Positions 1,642 to 57,849 of a stretch of 64,000 nt of DNA are shown piece after piece. Position 1 is the stretch's first letter. Each line of letters opens with the position of its first letter. The translations under genes were made by a program, and so were the position numbers. The stretch covers positions 12,394 to 76,393 of the forward strand of contig JBFINP010000006.1 in NCBI GenBank assembly GCA_041611095.1, read 5' to 3'. The notes under the pieces were generated by a model. The model saw only the letters and a program-made list of their open reading frames with translations. It searched no databases and was not told where the DNA came from. The DNA comes from Acidimicrobiia bacterium (GTDB lineage: Bacteria; Actinomycetota; Acidimicrobiia; Spongiisociales; UBA5794).

Positions 1642-1754
1642 ACGTCCAGCATACGACGACCGGCGTGTCTTCGCCGACTGAAAGAGTGAGCAAACGCGAC
1701 CCGGCGGCGAGTCGCGCCGCGAGTGCGACAGGTGGAGGCGGCCGGTCGGGCCGA

Positions 1755-1770
1755 CCGAACACATGTTCGA
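1755..1770. promoter_or_regulatory. LexA (SOS) box upstream of dnaE2
   Basis: CCGAAC-ACAT-GTTCGA matches the Gram-positive/actinobacterial CGAAC-N4-GTTCG consensus. It lies next to a TAGGCT -10 (1772-1777) and the GTG at 1785. Confidence 0.9.
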
Positions 1771-1784
1771 TTAGGCTGTGGCGG

Positions 1785-4700
1785 GTGACCCACTACGCCG
1801 AGCTCCATTGCCACACCAACTTCAGCTTCCTGGACGGTGCCGCGCATCCCCATGAGCTGGTCGCCCGGGCCGCCGAGTTGGGGTACACGGCGCTGGCGGT
1901 GACCGACCACGACGGTTTTCGCGGTGCCGTCAAGGTTCACGAGGCCGCCCGCGTTGTCGGGCTCCCCGTCGTGTATGGCACCGAGGTGGGGATGGCCCGT
2001 GGGCAGGATGACGGTTCACCCTTCGATCCGCTGGACCGCGTCGAGCCCGAGCCGAAGCCGCGGCCTCGTCGCGGTCGTATTCGCCGCATGCACGGATCGA
2101 AGCCGGTGACGAGAGAGCCCACGGATCACCTCGTGCTGCTGGCCCCCGACCCGGCGGGCTATGCAGCCATAAGCCGTTTCGTGACCCGCGGCCAGTACCG
2201 GGGGGAGAAGGACCGGCCCGTGTACCACTACGACGAGCTCGCCGAGGCGGCGCATCACGGCAACCTCGTGGCGCTCACTGGGTGCCGCCAGGGCGCCGTG
2301 CCCGGAGCGGCGCAGCGGGGCGACCTCCCCGGTGCGATGAAGGAGGCGGCTCGGCTGCGTGAGATGTTCCCTGGACGGCTCTTCGTCGAGCTGTGGCATC
2401 ACGGTTTGCCCGAGGACGACCCGCGAAACGAGATGCTCGTCGAGGTCGCCGCCCGGCTCCGGCTGCCGACCATCGCCACCAACAACGTCCACTACTCCCA
2501 TCGCCGCGACGCCCATCTGTCCGAGGTGCTCGCCGCCGTCGCCGGCAGGCGAGATCTCGCCACGGCCGACGGATTTCGACCCGCCACCGACCTGCGACAC
2601 CTGAGGACTCCCCACGAGATGGCCGAGCGCTTCACGCGCTATCCGGGGGCCGTGGCACGCGCCGCCGAGCTGGGGGAGGCGATGGCATTCGACCTCGACC
2701 TGCTGGCGCCCCAGCTTCCCGACTTCCCGATGCCCGGTGCCTTCACCACCGAAGACGAGTACCTGCGCCACCTCGTCTTCGAAGGTGCACGTGACGTGTA
2801 TCCGGGCACCGGAGAGCACGGGACCGACCCCCAGGCCGTGGTGCGGCTCGAGCACGAGCTCGAGGTCATCGCCGAGCTCGGCTTCGCCGGTTTCTTCCTC
2901 GTGGCCTGGGACATCGTGAGGTTCGCCCGCTCCCAGGACGTCTACTGCCAGATCCGAGGCTCCGGAGCCGACTCGGCGGTGTGCCGGTGCATCGGGCTCA
3001 CCAGGGTCGATCCGATCCGCCTCCAGCTGCCCTTCGAGCGCTTCCTGTCCGAGGAACGCGGGCGCCCCCCGGACATCGACATCGACTTCGAGGCCGAACG
3101 GCGCGAAGAGGTGATCCAGTACTGCTATCGGCGGTACGGCCGGGAGCGGGCGGCGATGGTCGCCAACGTCATCACGTACCGTGCCCGTTCCGTGCTCCAG
3201 GACGTCGGCAAGGCCTTCGGGCTGACCCAGGCGCAGGTGAACGCCCTCACCAAGTACCTCGACACGCACAACCCTCGACAGATCCCGGAGCTGGTCGATC
3301 TTCCCGCCGGCCTCACCTCGGAGCTCATCTATGACGTATGCAACCGCCTCGACGGGTTTCCCCGCCATCTCGGCATCCACTCGGGGGGGATGGTGGTTGC
3401 ACAACGCCCGCTGTGGGAGATCGTCCCGATGGAGTGGGGGCGCATGGAGGACCGCTCGGTGCTGCAGTGGGACAAGGACGACTGCGCTGCGATGGGCATC
3501 GTCAAGTTCGACCTGCTCGCCCTGGGGGCGATGAACGCCCTCCATCTCTCGGTCGACGCAATCCGGGACACCCACGGAGTCGACATCGATCTCGCCACCA
3601 TTCCCCAGGAACCGGTGATCTATGACATGCTCACCCGTGCGGACACCGTCGGGATCTTCCAGGTCGAGTCGAGGGCGCAGATGGCGACGCTCCCGCGGAT
3701 GAAACCCCGGACGTTCTACGACCTCGCCATCGAGGTGGCGCTGATCCGACCGGGGCCAATTCAGGGCCATTCCGTCCATCCGTTCCTGCGTCGCCGCAAC
3801 GGCGAGGAGCCGGTGCGGTATCCACATCCGGCTGCCGAATCGATCCTGAAGAAGACGCTGGGCGTGCCGGTCTTCCAGGAACAGCTCATGGAACTCGCCA
3901 GGGTGTGCGCCGGGTTCACGTCGGGGCAGTCCGACCGGCTGCGTCAGGCGATGACCCACAAGCGCTCGGACGAGGCCATGGCGACGCTGCGTGACGAGGT
4001 GTACGCCGGGATGAGCCGGATCGGTATCACCGGCGCCGCCGCCGACGAGATCTGGGAGAAGCTCCAGGGATTCGCCTCCTTCGGGTTCCCCGAGTCCCAC
4101 TCGGTGTCGTTCGCCTACATCGTCTACGCCGCGTCGTGGCTCAAGTATCACTGGCCCGGCGAGTTCTTCTGTGGTCTGCTCAACGCTCAGCCCATGGGGT
4201 TCTACACACCCAACTCACTCGTTCAGGATGCCGTACACCACGGCGTCGTTGTGCTGCCACCTGACATCAACCGCTCGGAGTTCGACTGCACGATGGAGTT
4301 GGTGGACGCCGACGAGGACGACATCGCCGAGTACCTGGGCATGCGATGGCGGCGGGGGAGGGGCGCCGTCGACGACCCACTGCGTCCGGCCGTTGCGGTG
4401 AGGGTCGGCCTCCGTTATGTGCGCAACCTCGGCGAGACGGAGATAAGCCGCATCGAGGCGGCGCGGATGGTGGGGGGAGTCTTCGGGACCCCCGAGGATC
4501 TGGCACAACGCACCGGCTTGCAGCTCGCATCTCTGGAGGCTCTGGCTGCGTCCGGCGCCCTCGTACCGCTGGGGCTCGGTCGCCGTGAGGGGATCTGGTC
4601 GGCGGGGGCCCTCGCCGGGATGGGGCCGGACCGTCTGGCGCTGGCGCCGGGTACCTCGTCACCCGACTTGCCGTCGCTGACCCGGCCGGAGTCGGTTCAG

Positions 4701-49040: not shown

Positions 49041-50102
49041 TCACTCGCCTGCGGTGACATCCGCCTCGAGGTTGAGGCGGTCGACGAGCGCCCGCAGGCG
49101 ACCAAGACCGCGCCGGTTGAAGTGCAGACGAAGGCGGGGGAGTTCGACGTGGTCGTCGTCGGCGATCTCGCGCTCGGTAGCACCGATCTTCTCGATGCGA
49201 CCCTGCACCAGGAGATCGGCGTAGTCGCTGTTCAGCTCCTCGACGAGGGGGGCGCTGGGCTCGTGCTTCAACCGCAGAACGAGCTTGCCTTCGACGTATC
49301 GCTGCGAGTGGTAGTTGCCGTAGAACCGCCTGATCTCCCGGCAGGCGTCCTCGATGTCGGTCGTGAAGTGGAACAGGTTGCGATCGTGCGGGGAGATCAT
49401 GCCCTGGCGCTCGAGCACTCCGATGAACTCGAGCCACGACTCCCAGTAGCCCGTGCCGGGCGCTTCGATGAGCACGATCGGGTGCAGGTCGGACTTGCCC
49501 GTCTGGATCAGGGTCAGCAGCTCGAATGTCTCGTCTTGGGTGCCGAAGCCACCGGGGAAGATCGCAAACGCGTCGGACTCCTTGACGAACATGAGCTTCC
49601 GGGTGAAGAAGTACTTGAAGTTGATCAGGCGGCTCTCGTGCACGTAGGGATTCGCCTCGGCCTCGAACGGCAGCCGGATGTTGACCCCGAACCCGTACTC
49701 GGTGCCGGCGCCCTTGTTGCCGGCCTCCATGATTCCCGGACCGGCGCCGGTGACCACCATCCACTTGTGCTCGTCCGCCATCCGGTTGGCGAAGTCGGCG
49801 GCGAGGAGATAGTTCGGGTCGTTCGGCGGCGTGCGGGCCGATCCGTAGATCGTCACCTTCGGCGTCTCTCGGTAGCGGGAGAAGATCAGAAACGAATACC
49901 GCAACTCCTTGAGCGCACTGTTCACCAGCTTCAGGTCACCTCGGTCGGTGTCGTCACGCAGCAGCTTGAGCCCGCTCACGAGCATCTCGGCAACGAGATC
50001 CTCGTCGCGATCTTGGGCCGGATGGCCGTCTTCCGAGACGGCATCGCGGATCAGCTCGGCGAGACGGCGATCGAGATCGTCGCCCAGGCGGTAGCGTCGC
50101 AT
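49041..50102 (-). CDS. LOG-family (TIGR00730) Rossmann-fold protein
   Basis: YGSART, TGAGPGIMEAGNKG, FKYFFTRK, PGGFGTQDE; TACATT -10 (leaderless). Confidence 0.9.
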   Translation of the reverse strand: MRRYRLGDDLDRRLAELIRDAVSEDGHPAQDRDEDLVAEMLVSGLKLLRDDTDRGDLKLVNSALKELRYSFLIFSRYRETPKVTIYGSARTPPNDPNYLLAADFANRMADEHKWMVVTGAGPGIMEAGNKGAGTEYGFGVNIRLPFEAEANPYVHESRLINFKYFFTRKLMFVKESDAFAIFPGGFGTQDETFELLTLIQTGKSDLHPIVLIEAPGTGYWESWLEFIGVLERQGMISPHDRNLFHFTTDIEDACREIRRFYGNYHSQRYVEGKLVLRLKHEPSAPLVEELNSDYADLLVQGRIEKIGATEREIADDDHVELPRLRLHFNRRGLGRLRALVDRLNLEADVTAGE

Positions 50103-50156
50103 GGAGCGAATGTAGTCGCCCGGCCACCCATCCGAACCCCAGTGCTCCAGCGATTC

Positions 50157-50303
50157 AGCGATGCATAGCGAGCCGGGGTGCTCGTCGGGGGTCGCTCCGC
50201 GACCCCCCACGTTCCGCGGTGCGGTGACTCTGCCGCCGCACCGCACAATGAGCCCGCCGGGAGGCGGTCGCCTGCAACTCGTCCGAAGCCTGCTTCGGAC
50301 GAA
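50157..50303. repeat. Structured intergenic repeat, copy B (inverted relative to copy A)
   Basis: Reverse complement aligns end to end with 5088-5233. Confidence 0.85.
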
Positions 50304-50318
50304 GCTAGGTTTGGGCTG

Positions 50319-50981
50319 ATGCTTGCCCCCGACTTCACGCTCCCTGATCACGCCGCCGAGGACTGGACGCTGTCCGACCAGCGCGGAGCGGCAGTGGTCC
50401 TCCTCTTCCTTCGCGGTGACTGGTGAGCCTATTGCAACGGCCAGCTGGTCAGCGTGGCGCGCAGATACGACGAGTTCACGGGTGCCGGGGCGATCGTGGC
50501 AAGCGTGAGCGTCGACTCCGTCGGCCAGAACGCAGCGATGGTCGACAAGCTGCAATTGCCGTTCCCGCTACTCTCCGATCCTGACCGGAGCGTCGCGGTC
50601 GGGCCCTACGGCGTGGCCGATCCCGTGGACGCTCGCGAGATCGCGCTTCCGACGACGGTCGTGATCGACCCCGCCGGGGCGGAGGTGTGGCGACGTTCCT
50701 CGACAGACTTCGCCGATCGTCCCGAAGAGGACTTGACGCTCGAGGTCGTGAACGCGCTCGACCTGCCCGCCACGACAGCGGCGGCCGTGAAGCGCGGACG
50801 GCCCGAGCCCGGACCGAAGGCGATGCCGTTCGATGCCCTGACGGCGTACTACCGCGGGGCCAAGTTTGCGGCGATCGCCATGGGCCGTCGTTTCCCCGAC
50901 GCGCGCGACACCTCCATGGCCTATGCGGCGCAAATGGACCGTTATGTCGAGGCCGTCCACCAGACGAGGGATCTGCGCTGA
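50319..50981 (+). CDS. AhpC/TSA peroxiredoxin-like selenoprotein (in-frame UGA read as Sec, UxxC)
   Basis: MLAPDFTLPD...LLFLRGDW-[TGA 50424-50426]-AYCNGQL...SVDS...FPLLSDP, one continuous thioredoxin fold. Confidence 0.85.
50433..50463 (+). promoter_or_regulatory. Candidate bacterial SECIS hairpin
   Basis: GCCA-GCT-[GGTC]-AGC-G-TGGC; the G-led apical loop starts 20 nt after the UGA. Confidence 0.6.
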
Positions 50982-53640: not shown

Positions 53641-53892
53641 TCAGCGACGCTCGGCGCGTGGGCGAGCCTCGTTGACCGTGAGGGGCCGGCCGCCGAAATC
53701 AGAGCCGTTGAGATCCGCGATGGCCTTGCGCCCCGCCTCGTCCGGCATCTCGACGAAGCCGAAGCCGCGAGAGCGGCCGGTGTCGCGGTCCATGATGACT
53801 GAGGCCGAATGCACCGGGCCGTACTCGGAGAACAGCTCTTCGAGGTCGACGTTGGTCGTCGAGAACGGGAGGTTGCCTACGTAGATGTTCAC
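53641..53892 (-). CDS. RRM RNA-binding protein
   Basis: RNP2 IYVGNL, RNP1 RGFGFVEM, VNEARPR. Confidence 0.93.
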   Translation of the reverse strand: MNIYVGNLPFSTTNVDLEELFSEYGPVHSASVIMDRDTGRSRGFGFVEMPDEAGRKAIADLNGSDFGGRPLTVNEARPRAERR

Positions 53893-54070
53893 GGCGTCGC
53901 TCGCCTTTCGTCCTTGGCCACACCCTTTGTGGCCGCCGCACTCGTGCCGGCTGTGCTCCTCCGCCATTCCGGTCCACATGAGAGGGGGGTCTGGGCGAGT
54001 CGCCGCCTGAGCAGCACGGTCAGCTTAGCTGCCGCCTGTCGGGTCGCCGGTCCACGGGCGCGACGACGGC

Positions 54071-55063
54071 TCAGTCGCGGAAGGCGGGTCCCTTGGGGCC
54101 TCGCCGGACGACTGCCGCCCACACCGTGTCGTAATGGTCGCGGTCGAATGGCTCGATGTGGGGGAGGACGAACTCGTCCCACGACCGTCGCAACGGATCG
54201 TCGGCGTCGTTGTTCATCCGCAGCCCGGCTGGGATGCGCTCCAGCACCGCCCGCAGGCTGAGTGGTGTCTCGACCCTGGTCCGGGCGTCGGTCGAGGTGA
54301 ACGACGCGTTCACCTCGACGGCGAGTTTGGCGATCGCCGTGACGTACTCGCTCTTGAGGGTCGGGTGGCGGCGCTCCAGCATCGACACCAGCTCGTCTCG
54401 GGCCGGAAACGACTTCTCCCAGATGAGCCACCGGTCGGCGAAGGCCTTGTTGAGTGTCTGGGTTCCCGCGTAGTCCCGCAGGTCGGTCGGGTTGAGCGTC
54501 CCGAAGATCCGTACGTCGGGTCGCAGGTGAATCATCTCGCCGGTCGGCAGCTCGAGGGCCCGGTGCCGGTCGAGGAGCCCGTGCAGGGCGAAGAGCGTCT
54601 CGGCGCCGGCCGCGTTGAGCTCCGAGAGGTTGACGAGGGCCGGGCCGCGCAAGGCCCGAGTGATGTCACCGTCCTCCCACCGGCTCTCGGTCCCGCCCTT
54701 GCCGTCGCCGTGGAGCTTGACGGATCCGATCAGGGTGATGTCGCGCACCTCGCCGGTGAGGGGGATGCGGTAGTAGGGGAGCCGGAGAAGAGCGGCGAAC
54801 TGCTCGAGGTCGTGGTCTTTGCCGGTGCCCATGTGACCGCGCAGCGCGAGATGGAGCGGCATGTCTTGGAGGTAGTGGCGCCGGACATTCTCGAGCTGAG
54901 CGAGCCGGTACAGCATCCCGAGGTCGACGTAGTACGGGTCGGGTTCCGGGACGTGCTGCATCCGAAGCTCTTGGTCGGGTAGGTCCTTCGGGATGTCGAC
55001 GGTTTCGAGCTCGATCGGGGTGCCGTCACCAACCGGGTCCTTGAAGATCACCGTTTCCGACAT
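54071..55063 (-). CDS. MoxR-type AAA+ ATPase (CbbQ/NirQ/NorQ/CobS-like) with atypical Walker motifs
   Basis: GHMGTGKD, DGDITRAL, LVNLSELN, GTLNP..YAGTQTLNKAFADRW, LSLR; GGAGG SD. Confidence 0.85.
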   Translation of the reverse strand: MSETVIFKDPVGDGTPIELETVDIPKDLPDQELRMQHVPEPDPYYVDLGMLYRLAQLENVRRHYLQDMPLHLALRGHMGTGKDHDLEQFAALLRLPYYRIPLTGEVRDITLIGSVKLHGDGKGGTESRWEDGDITRALRGPALVNLSELNAAGAETLFALHGLLDRHRALELPTGEMIHLRPDVRIFGTLNPTDLRDYAGTQTLNKAFADRWLIWEKSFPARDELVSMLERRHPTLKSEYVTAIAKLAVEVNASFTSTDARTRVETPLSLRAVLERIPAGLRMNNDADDPLRRSWDEFVLPHIEPFDRDHYDTVWAAVVRRGPKGPAFRD

Positions 55064-55112
55064 GCGGGAATCCTCCTGTGTTTCGTTGCGGAAGAGGGGA
55101 GAGCTGGGCGGA

Positions 55113-57404
55113 TCACGATGCCAGCTCCGCTCCATCCAGGCCGGGCGCCGTGACACCCATGCGCACGATTCGCTCCGGGTGGGACCACCAGCCGTGGCCG
55201 CCCATTGTCGCCAGCGTTCTATAGAGGGTCGAACGGACCCCTTCGACCATGGCGCGTGCCAGCTCGTCGGGCCGTTCGACCACCTGATTGCGTGCGTAGG
55301 CGGCCTGCACCGTGGTGTCGCCGATTCCGATGCCGAGCACCACCGTTCCGGACTGCTCGATCGCCTCCACGGAGTCGGCGAGCGCCTGGACGGAGCCACG
55401 TGTCATGCCGTCGGCGAGCACTACCAGGATGCGGGTGGCGACATGGCGACCACCGAGGCGTCCGGCGGCGTAGGCGAGGTTGAACTCGTCGACGTTGGCG
55501 GCTTTGTCGAACATCGAGACCGGTGGTGCGCTCTCCGGGTCCTGACGGGCCCTCCGCCCCGCCTCACCTGGGCTTGCCGCAGTCCAGAACAGCCCTGCAA
55601 TGAGATCGTCGGCGCCGCGCCACCGTCGGTCGAAGGGCTTGACGAGGTAGTGGTTCACGGTGCGCGTCAGCCGCTCGGCCGCACCACCCTGGGTGCGTCG
55701 TAGCGCACCCGTCGCCCGGTGACGCCGGTCGCTGAACGAGCGCTCAGAGTCGTCGGCGGCGGCGGCGAAGGCACGGTTGAACAGAGCGACTTCGAACTCG
55801 ATCTGGAGCTCGTCGCACAGGTGGGCGAGCGTCCATGCCCCCAGCGTGGCGGCCGCGAGGGCCCAGGGGGTCTTCCGGCCCCCGGGCGCCGGTCGCGGCT
55901 GGAGCATGCTCGCCGATCCGTCCACGAGGACGCTGACGGCATAGGAGCGGCGCATCGGCAGGTCGCGACGCTCGAACATCCGCTCGTAGAGGCCGGCGCC
56001 GAGCAACAGGGCAGCGTGCGGGGACAGATCGCCGGCGTCGTAGCCGCTGCGCAGGCCTCGGCGCTGGTTGGCGAGGAACAACGGATACAGCTCTCCCGAC
56101 ACCCTCCGCTGGGCAACGGCCCAACGCATGGCGGCATCGTCGATGAGGGCCCGCCCGTCGCCGGCGAACTGGCCGAACCGACTCGGGAACGACCCGACGA
56201 CCAGCTTGCCGCCTTGCCCCGTCGGCAGGTAGACCGTCGGTGCTTCGCTGACGAGAACGACCTGCTCCGTCGCCGGATCGCCGGCGTGCTCGGCCTCGCC
56301 CTTGCGTCCGGCCTCCGCACTCACCGACTGGGCCGCCTGTCGCGTCTGCTCATAGGACTCTCGGTCGCGCAGGGGAGGCGTGACCATGCGCACGGCGTCG
56401 ACGGTCTCGGCAATAGCCGACGCATCGGCCTCGTCCCGGAGCTTGCGGGTCGCGGACGTGTCGACGCCGCCGGCGTCGGTGACGAGCTGGTGGAGACGCG
56501 CCACCTCGAGCAACTGGAGCGCAATGGTCCCGGTCTCCCAGGGCCCGTCGGCTTCCGGCAGCTCGTCGAGGAAGACCGTGGCGTCATCGAGGGCACCGGC
56601 CACGGCCGGGGCGACGCGGCGCTCCAGCTCCTTCCGCTCGAGGTAATCGCCGACGAGCAGGAAGCAGCTCAATGCAAACTGGCCCAGCGCCCGTGCCTCG
56701 CGCATCGCATCGGGCACGGCCGCCCGGTAGAGATCGGCGAGCACAGACCTGGCGCCGCCGTATGCACCGAAGTGGATGCGCTCTTGGCGAGCATCCTCGA
56801 TGCTCAGGAACAATGCTTCTGCGGATTCGCCTCCGGCTTCGTTCAAGGCGTCGAGGAGGGCGAACTCCTGGGCCGGCGAAGCGGCGGCCTCCGCCCCGGC
56901 CTCACCGTCGTCTTCCCTGATCGAGGCCGCCACCGCCGCCATGTCCTCGTCGTCGTCGAAGAGCGACAGCGGGCTGGTGATGGGCTCCTCGGGCGGAGGG
57001 ACCGCTGCCGGGCGGCGATGGCGGACCCACTCGGCGGGAAGGGGGCGCCGCTCGTCGAGGTCGGTGGCGATCAAATGGATGGCCTCGTGCAACGCCGACG
57101 TCAGTGCCACTTCGGTAGGAGTGACCGGTGCGTTCCGCGCATAGGCGGCTTGGAACGTGCCCGGATCCAGGACGATCTCACCGTCACCGGCGGCGGCCTG
57201 CGAGCCGAGCCGTACCCGCAGCTCCTCGTCGTCGGCGACGGCGCGCGCAAAGCGCGTGACAGCCGGCGCCACCCTCTGGTACCGGGCAACGACGGCCTCG
57301 ATGGCGCGCTCGTCGGCGGGCAGGATGCCTGTGAGCACGGACTCGTTGCGACGACGCATAACCGTCGATTGTCTCACACGGGGCGGAATCGTGTTCCGGT
57401 TCAC
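55113..57404 (-). CDS. vWA-domain protein (CobT/NorD/CbbO-like)
   Basis: HEAIH, IEDARQE, MIDAS DGSAS and LADG, LGIGIG. Start uncertain (57404 follows AGGAG; 57359 is an alternative). Confidence 0.82.
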   Translation of the reverse strand: MNRNTIPPRVRQSTVMRRRNESVLTGILPADERAIEAVVARYQRVAPAVTRFARAVADDEELRVRLGSQAAAGDGEIVLDPGTFQAAYARNAPVTPTEVALTSALHEAIHLIATDLDERRPLPAEWVRHRRPAAVPPPEEPITSPLSLFDDDEDMAAVAASIREDDGEAGAEAAASPAQEFALLDALNEAGGESAEALFLSIEDARQERIHFGAYGGARSVLADLYRAAVPDAMREARALGQFALSCFLLVGDYLERKELERRVAPAVAGALDDATVFLDELPEADGPWETGTIALQLLEVARLHQLVTDAGGVDTSATRKLRDEADASAIAETVDAVRMVTPPLRDRESYEQTRQAAQSVSAEAGRKGEAEHAGDPATEQVVLVSEAPTVYLPTGQGGKLVVGSFPSRFGQFAGDGRALIDDAAMRWAVAQRRVSGELYPLFLANQRRGLRSGYDAGDLSPHAALLLGAGLYERMFERRDLPMRRSYAVSVLVDGSASMLQPRPAPGGRKTPWALAAATLGAWTLAHLCDELQIEFEVALFNRAFAAAADDSERSFSDRRHRATGALRRTQGGAAERLTRTVNHYLVKPFDRRWRGADDLIAGLFWTAASPGEAGRRARQDPESAPPVSMFDKAANVDEFNLAYAAGRLGGRHVATRILVVLADGMTRGSVQALADSVEAIEQSGTVVLGIGIGDTTVQAAYARNQVVERPDELARAMVEGVRSTLYRTLATMGGHGWWSHPERIVRMGVTAPGLDGAELAS

Positions 57405-57426
57405 GGCCACTCCTACGCTGGTGTCC

Positions 57427-57849
57427 ATGGACGATCTGGAGCTGGCCGGAGGCCGAGTGATCCCGGCGGCCGAGCTCACCGAACGATTCGACCCCAGTGG
57501 GGGGCCGGGTGGTCAGCACGCCAACCGATCGGCGACCCGAGTGGCGCTGTCGTGGGACCTCGGCGCCAGCGCCGTGTTCGAGGGCTCCGAGAGGGACCGG
57601 CTGCTGGCACGGCTCGCAACCCGCCTGCACGAGGGCGTGGTCACGGTGGAGGCCGGGGAGTCGCGCTCGCAGTGGCGCAACCGCCAGCTCGCCCGTCGCC
57701 GGCTCCGCGAGCTCGTCGAGGAGGCGCTCCGACCGGAAACCAAGCGCCGCCCCACCCGTCCGAGCCGCGCCGCCCGCCGGCGCCGTCTCGAGGAGAAGCG
57801 GCGGCGCAGCATCACCAAGCGCCTGCGCGGCAGGCCCGACATCGAATGA
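57427..57849 (+). CDS. arfB: Alternative ribosome rescue peptidyl-tRNA hydrolase ArfB
   Basis: SGGPGGQHAN, RSQWRN, basic tail RRPTRPS. Confidence 0.93.
   Translation: MDDLELAGGRVIPAAELTERFDPSGGPGGQHANRSATRVALSWDLGASAVFEGSERDRLLARLATRLHEGVVTVEAGESRSQWRNRQLARRRLRELVEEALRPETKRRPTRPSRAARRRRLEEKRRRSITKRLRGRPDIE

Follow-up and report, generated by a model that had tools for sequence, protein, structure and literature searches.

Does a P-loop ATPase go on working when the two residues that hold its magnesium ion have changed places? This question is raised by a gene on the minus strand (54071..55063, 330 aa plus stop codon) of a 64,000-nt stretch of DNA, referred to below as the window, from Acidimicrobiia bacterium GCA_041611095.1 (contig JBFINP010000006.1, positions 12,394-76,393 of the forward strand). 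Translation, Pfam, AlphaFold2 and Foldseek identified the product as a CobS-like, MoxR-class AAA+ ATPase. The Ser/Thr expected after the Walker A lysine is replaced by Asp in this protein, and the Asp expected in Walker B is replaced by Ser.

The main text of Kozlova et al. 2022 (PMC9599734) describes the Ser/Thr after the Walker A lysine (position K+1) and the Walker B Asp as a strictly conserved, hydrogen-bonded and Mg-linked pair. In canonical P-loop proteins, according to that text, the K+1 hydroxyl is an inner-sphere ligand of Mg2+ and is hydrogen-bonded to the Walker B Asp. Among proton-carrying residues, only these two are presented there as strictly conserved throughout the P-loop nucleoside triphosphatases (NTPases), and the pair is proposed to be their universal proton-accepting catalytic module (PMC9599734). 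The exceptions given in the main text are Gly at K+1, which is a loss, and Glu in Walker B, which is a like-for-like replacement; an 'AspK+1' does not appear in it, and additional exceptions are listed in Figure S7. Neither of these exceptions to the rule, the nucleoside monophosphate kinases with Gly at K+1 and the NTPases with a Walker B Glu, is described there as exchanging both residues, and in kinases with Gly at K+1 a water molecule substitutes for the lost ligand (PMC9599734). TorsinA, as far as PMC5628414 describes it, is a functional AAA+ protein with the motif GxxxxGKN and no Ser/Thr at K+1; unlike the window protein, it carries Asn rather than Asp, has a canonical Walker B DE, lacks an Arg finger of its own and displays no reciprocal change. 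The window gene encodes an AAA+ protein of MoxR/CobS-like type whose active-site configuration is without precedent: no published GKD Walker A or Walker A/B exchange was found in open full texts, a search that did not extend to subscription-only journals or to supplementary material such as Figure S7 of PMC9599734.

The exchange at the ATP site

A Shine-Dalgarno sequence, AGGAGG, was read directly at 55072..55077 (minus strand), 8 nt 5' of the ATG at 55063, and homologues of the ATPase are 328-334 aa long; the 330-aa reading is therefore taken as correct. A 442-aa open reading frame (ORF) starting at GTG was considered as the gene and rejected on the same two grounds. The ATPase is encoded by a single copy in its own genome, and among 18 regular-expression matches in that genome only this gene resembled a P-loop by eye.

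The Walker A motif (P-loop) reads GHMGTGKD (54815..54838, minus strand), with K82 at 54818-54820 and D83, encoded by GAC, at 54815-54817 in place of Ser/Thr. Walker B reads LVNLSE (54620..54637, minus strand), with N145 at 54629-54631, S147, encoded by TCG, at 54623-54625 in place of Asp, and the catalytic E148 at 54620-54622. Both motifs had been noticed, with their substitutions, in a preliminary description of this DNA, and their coordinates were confirmed base by base. They depart from the standard MoxR-class patterns GxxGxGK[S/T] and hhhhDE by the Asp at K+1, seen in every clade member examined, and by the Ser that precedes the retained catalytic Glu. The two substitutions fall at structurally equivalent Walker positions: in HMMER alignments to midasin AAA domains, D83 fell on the Walker A Thr and S147 on the Walker B Asp. 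The AlphaFold2 model, built from a 48-row alignment (predicted local distance difference test, pLDDT, 91.2; predicted template modelling score 0.90), displayed a canonical P-loop layout, in which the strand 142-147 terminates at S147 and the helix 82-93 opens at K82.

The remainder of the catalytic apparatus is kept. The alignment (A2) comprised 33 rows with the exchange (GKD/SE) and 15 canonical outgroups. Invariant over all 48 rows were G76, G79, G81, K82, E148, N150, the sensor-1 Asn N191 of TLNP (54491..54493, minus strand), P192 and the Arg finger R211 of ADRW (54431..54433, minus strand), and the sensor-2 Arg R271 of SLR (54251..54253, minus strand) was conserved in at least 90% of rows, in agreement with the preliminary description, which had listed the catalytic Lys and Glu, TLNP, ADRW and SLR as retained. 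Spacing between these residues (D83-E148, 65; E148-N191, 43; N191-R211, 20; R211-R271, 60) matches that of Rhodobacter CobS, for which bioRxiv 10.64898/2026.10.09.757910 gives T75, E138, N182, R206 and R267 (63, 44, 24 and 61). The sensor-1, Arg finger and sensor-2 assignments therefore appear reasonable.

Distribution of the exchange

Conservation was followed in three sets that overlap in part and are not additive: 120 proteins, the closest of the matches listed (77-100% identity, mostly labelled as Acidimicrobiia metagenome-assembled genomes); 35 loci, namely the window and 34 genome loci; and 80 loci, the best 80 of 407 relatives found in species-level genomes. GHMGTGKD together with NLSELN occurred in all 120 closest proteins among the matches listed, and GKD together with NLSE in 35/35 genome loci and in 80/80 of the best 80 of 407. 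One locus of the last set (among L042-L121) reads GHRGTGKD (M78R) instead of GHMGTGKD and still has GKD and NLSE. Codons varied under these fixed residues: across the 35 loci D83 was encoded by GAC (22) or GAT (13), and S147 by TCC (12), TCG (10), TCA (7), TCT (5) or AGC (1). This synonymous turnover, with the residues themselves unchanged, excludes sequencing error and demonstrates purifying selection on Asp and Ser themselves. The single-change form, GKD or SE alone, was not found in the proteins, loci and outgroups examined. Two expectations that accompanied the preliminary description, that GKD and [ST]E would always occur together and that neither codon would prove to be a sequencing error, were thus borne out, and the nearest outgroups were canonical.

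The ATPase was found in 40/41 relatives and in 32/32 of the high-quality ones (38/39 without the two unpublished genomes G027 and G038). A sample of 151 genomes of the class contained it in 72, covering every sampled family of its own order (36/36 genomes besides G000) and 34/35 genomes of a family with genomes of about 1 Mb; the other families of this sample yielded no orthologue, and one of them (f27, genome G081) gave just a distant NorQ/CbbQ-like match (31% identity, E 4.6e-12). Orthologues from the genomes of about 1 Mb and about 30% GC were 57-61% identical, kept GKD/SE and were retained as a pair with the partner gene described below. Matches in a sample of 301 genomes of the phylum came from the own order only, plus one distant outgroup (G262). 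The pair is single-copy and near-universal in one Acidimicrobiia order and in a sister lineage with genomes of about 1 Mb.

Outgroups and origin

A search of 1.84 billion representative proteins returned 25 listed matches short enough for a motif scan. Among the matches listed, GKD or SE is present in each family row that extends over a motif; beyond the family rows were found multi-domain midasins and two canonical single-domain relatives, P0143 (GKT/DE, 46-48% identity) and P0250 (GKS/EE). A search from P0143 returned 21 proteins, all with GK[T/S]. The nearest genomic outgroup, G262, belongs to another class of the phylum; its ATPase is 36% identical, has GKT with an EE Walker B and adjoins a gene for a VWA protein with a MIDAS (metal ion-dependent adhesion site). 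Pairing with a VWA gene is therefore older than the exchange. At this locus (L041, contig C18) the GKT/LLLEE ATPase ORF (3542-4627, minus strand) is convergent with the ORF of a 593-aa VWA protein (1741-3522, plus strand), in which the MIDAS reads DASYS.

In all 15 outgroups of alignment A2, position 83 is occupied by T or S; position 147 is D in 11 of them and E in 4. Asp was found at K+1 in 0/538 G..G.GK. sites of 125 midasin-like proteins, a count that covers these proteins and is not a survey of P-loop NTPases at large. One midasin-like protein of 2600 aa (P0204) carries four GERGTGKN repeats followed by WLILDEID, a torsin-like GKN with a canonical Walker B. A quick maximum-likelihood tree separated the 33 GKD/SE rows from the other rows by one branch (Shimodaira-Hasegawa-like approximate likelihood-ratio test 100) with a very long stem. 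The exchange arose once, from a canonical ancestor.

Decay or function

Within the clade 136 of the 330 positions were invariant, and these clustered in the nucleotide-binding and pore-loop core. Invariance was high in the P-loop (64%), Walker B (74%) and sensor-1/finger (69%) blocks and low in the N-terminus (18%) and the lid (26%); over the ATP-site and pore-loop core (residues 68-215) it amounted to 56-74%. The gene also changes slowly. Between the window and a locus from a genome of about 1 Mb in a distant order (L013, G121), the ATPase was 59% identical, compared with 28% for DapB and 26% for the partner protein. The ATPase evolves slower than the adjacent DapB, and unusually slowly for a lineage-specific gene. 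Taken together, the pattern of conservation in the alignment indicates a working active site and not a decaying one.

The preliminary description had seen in the two changes compensation rather than decay. Its second half holds, in that decay is unlikely: the catalytic residues are kept, the core is the best conserved part and the ATPase is far closer between distant orders than DapB. Compensation is left unproven by co-occurrence, as the tree places the exchange on a single branch and the joint presence of GKD and SE is one inherited event, without statistical weight for compensation.

Family assignment

Pfam AAA_5 (PF07728) matched residues 71-211 with 52.2 bits (cut-off 22, E 8e-14). The best solved folds for the ATPase in Foldseek were NorQ (9qh4, E 1e-17, TM-score 0.86) and CbbQ (6l1q, TM-score 0.87); matches to these two families spanned E 1e-17 to 3e-17 and TM-scores of 0.84-0.87 normalised by target, and covered the large and the lid subdomains of AAA+. 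A VWA/MIDAS partner gene, another mark of the MoxR class, adjoined the ATPase gene in 25/25 loci. The only NCBIfam match was CobS (TIGR01650), which scored 47.5 bits where the equivalog cut-off is 558.55; an orthologue from a genome of about 1 Mb reached 67.9 bits. Searched against the PDB, the family profile matched CobS (8e-50), CbbQ (2e-49) and NorQ (2e-44), and the top-scoring PDB sequence matches of the ATPase itself were midasin AAA domains. The label of MoxR AAA+ ATPase given in the first place is supported by Pfam AAA_5 and by the NorQ/CbbQ fold; it is a loose one, since the nearest named family is CobS, whose cut-off lies far above the score obtained.

Comparison with the named systems placed the pair nearest to CobS-CobT of the CobNST cobaltochelatase, with which it shares an AAA+ protein of about 330 aa and a partner of about 650-750 aa. 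CobS was the best single-domain PDB match of the family profile, the N-terminal extension of the ATPase aligned to it as well, and Walker A, Walker B, sensor 1, Arg finger and sensor 2 are similarly spaced in both proteins. The window ATPase has GKD/SE, whereas CobS has GKT/DE. NorQ-NorD and CbbQ-CbbO gave the best fold matches for the ATPase, and NorD for the VWA domain of the partner, but sequence identity of NorQ and CbbQ to the window ATPase was just 21-24%, and neither of their clients, nitric oxide reductase and Rubisco, is implicated for the window pair. NorQ and CbbQ have canonical Walker motifs. Midasin (Rea1), which provided the top PDB sequence matches and has a MIDAS domain resembling the VWA domain of the partner, differs in being a single giant eukaryotic polypeptide and in having no Asp after the Lys at the sites counted above.

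The partner gene

The partner, a CobT/NorD-like protein of 748 aa, is encoded at 55113..57359 (minus strand), its start at the ATG at 57359 being inferred from the alignment to orthologues. Its N-terminal domain, which contains an HExxH motif, is connected by a linker to a C-terminal VWA domain that bears a MIDAS. In 25/25 other loci the partner gene lies directly upstream of the ATPase gene on the same strand, usually with overlapping reading frames and with an intact MIDAS (25/25). Over 26/26 partners the HExxH residues H91, E92 and H95 (HEAIH, 57075..57089, minus strand) were invariant, as were a downstream Glu, E193 (56781..56783, minus strand), the MIDAS residues D480, S482 and S484 of the DxSxS motif DGSAS (55908..55922, minus strand), and two further MIDAS residues that lie outside the DGSAS range, T567 (55659-55661) and D650 (55410-55412), on the same strand.

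The model of the partner reached a pLDDT of 77.5 and placed HExxH within a predicted helix (81-98). Its VWA domain matched NorD (9qh8_G, bound to NorQ) with a VIA-align Z of 18.1 over 226 residues (root-mean-square deviation 7.1) and a Foldseek E of 6.5e-7, and the Rea1 MIDAS domain with a VIA-align Z of 15.8. The best PDB match of the partner family profile was CobT (E 7e-6), over the VWA part; a second, weak stretch aligned the EDARQE region of the partner with CobT 95-162 (domain E-value 47). Pfam VWA was detected in 14/26 and CobT_C in 13/26 partners (E <= 0.1), the window copy scoring 16.3 against a cut-off of 21. The N-terminus may set the partner apart from CobT: it has the invariant HExxH and no match to the Pfam CobT N-terminal model. 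SprT-like Pfam models matched 3/26 partners weakly (best E 0.031), and the N-terminal domain may be a zincin-like metallopeptidase to which a CobT/NorD-like VWA protein has been fused.

CobN (PF02514) was found in 0/5 genomes, namely the own genome (92.7% complete), G059 (98%), G037 (99%), G121 (87%) and G044 (94%); a control search with PF02514 gave matches in 5/14 reference genomes. Membership of CobNST was rejected, as CobN was not found in these five genomes and the CobS score lies far below its cut-off. The pair also differs from CobST in its gene order, with the partner first and the ATPase second. Judged by homology, it is probably a divergent AAA+/VWA motor of CobST-like type that lacks the chelatase subunit.

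A reversed pair and its alternatives

The overall reading proposed here, which commands about half of our confidence, is that the protein would be the ATPase subunit of a two-gene CobS/CobT-like remodelling motor that works without CobN, its ATP site carrying an ancient and fixed exchange of Thr to Asp and of Asp to Ser. To judge from the sequence, the ATPase most likely still binds ATP-Mg2+ and hydrolyses ATP. The more specific proposal, that this P-loop ATPase is fully active with its Mg2+-holding and proton-relay pair reversed, a carboxylate in Walker A ligating the metal and a hydroxyl standing in Walker B, is put forward tentatively and with somewhat less confidence. The carboxylate of D83 would ligate Mg2+ directly in place of the Thr hydroxyl, and S147 would take over the hydrogen-bond role of the canonical Asp, directed toward D83. 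Such an exchange would preserve one carboxylate facing one hydroxyl, the net charge and the summed side-chain length. E148, N191, R211 (in trans) and R271 would play the parts they have in other AAA+ hexamers. To judge from the homology to CobST and NorQD, the ATPase would form a hexamer, the pore loops of its H2 insert would engage and pull the VWA finger of the partner, and the MIDAS of the partner, possibly with the HExxH domain, would hold the client.

Several points weigh against the overall reading. According to the main text of Kozlova et al. (PMC9599734), the enzymes tested lose their activity when either residue is replaced. An Asp beside the phosphates would repel a nucleotide if no Mg2+ were bound. 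The single origin of the exchange on the quick tree deprives the reading of independent evidence of compensation. The same stem fixed at least 14 further changes, each uniform within the clade and unlike the residue in all or most outgroups (T78M, R87E, N101P, T107R, D/E110T, G141P, G142A, H181R, A188G, K202Q, F212W, R252N, T270L and W276R); R252N replaced an Arg present in 15/15 outgroups. Since that branch fixed so many other changes, R252N, K202Q and R87E among them, the ATP site may have been rebuilt for something besides ordinary hydrolysis. As for retention, no match to the ATPase was found in one relative, G020 (79% complete), and in another, G030 (85% complete), the orthologue (C6:333639-334620) is broken by an in-frame TGA and gave a three-piece match; either a pseudogene or a fault in the assembly may explain this interrupted copy. 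T78M sits within the P-loop, and N145, two residues ahead of S147, is also invariant in the clade. The further clade-fixed substitutions may represent co-adaptations of the ATP site.

A slow, switch-like ATPase and an altered metal preference are serious alternatives, because either replacement kills the tested enzymes and because the clade has lost R252 and K202. The first would be a switch or scaffold that binds ATP and hydrolyses it poorly, holding nucleotide and metal tightly with slowed or gated hydrolysis, its hexamer serving as a nucleotide-dependent assembly platform for the VWA partner and not as a fast motor. General coordination chemistry suggests that an inner-sphere carboxylate should hold the metal tighter, and both lost residues, R252 and K202, are invariant in the outgroups, which speak for this explanation along with the abolished activity of the tested enzymes. 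Residues that serve mainly hydrolysis, E148, N191 and the trans-acting R211, are nevertheless invariant, and few parts of the protein are as well conserved as the pore-loop region. We regard a switch or scaffold as rather unlikely.

An altered cofactor, with the Asp/Ser pair suited to another divalent metal (e.g., Mn2+, Ca2+ or Co2+) or to another nucleotide and catalysis continuing, is improbable. A charged inner-sphere ligand would be expected to alter the affinity and selectivity for the metal, and the nearest named relatives, CobS and NorQ, serve metal-insertion systems; yet no particular metal or base is indicated by the sequence, and the P-loop glycines and Lys are standard.

Slightly more doubtful still is a nucleotide-free pseudo-ATPase, in which D83 would occlude or neutralise the P-loop, for instance by pairing with K82, and the fold would act as a structural ring only. 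Both of the residues held to be strictly conserved are non-canonical here, and degenerate AAA modules are known in relatives such as midasin and dynein. Against it, GxxGxGK, E148, N191, R211 and R271 have been kept over a deep clade, whereas dead sites would usually shed such residues piecemeal, and the ATP-site core is the most conserved region of the protein. Finally, an artefact, whether an error of sequencing or assembly or a pseudogene decaying in the own genome, is refuted: every relative examined has the same D83 and S147 while both codons vary synonymously, the frame is intact, the ribosome-binding site is strong and the gene is single-copy.

Neighbouring genes

The 112-aa product of a gene just downstream of the ATPase gene, at 53641-53979 (minus strand), has an RNA recognition motif of eukaryote type (Pfam RRM_1, E 7.9e-22). 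An ORF at 57157-57849 (plus strand), which runs divergently from the partner gene, has a GGQ motif (…GGPGGQHANRS…) and looks, by eye, like a peptidyl-tRNA hydrolase/release-factor domain of ArfB type. Near the operon, at 49041-50555 (minus strand), lies a gene that by eye resembles the LOG family (…PGGFGTQDE…); a similar LOG-like ORF, also recognised by eye, immediately follows the ATPase gene in G037 and G059 (L015 and L016). Synteny, as read by eye, placed an M16 peptidase gene and dapB upstream in the window, and dapB/dapA upstream in the genomes of about 1 Mb.

Significance

A residue exchange in a protein that is single-copy, evolves slowly and has retained all its other catalytic residues provides a natural test of how ATP is split in the P-loop class. 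It bears on whether the pair acts as a unit and on whether direct ligation of Mg2+ by a carboxylate is compatible with AAA+ catalysis. For the lineage itself, the finding would define a CobST-like motor without CobN, specific to these bacteria and kept even in genomes of about 1 Mb. If the reversed pair is active, the chemistry of the pair, and not the placement of each residue, would be the requirement of P-loop ATPases.

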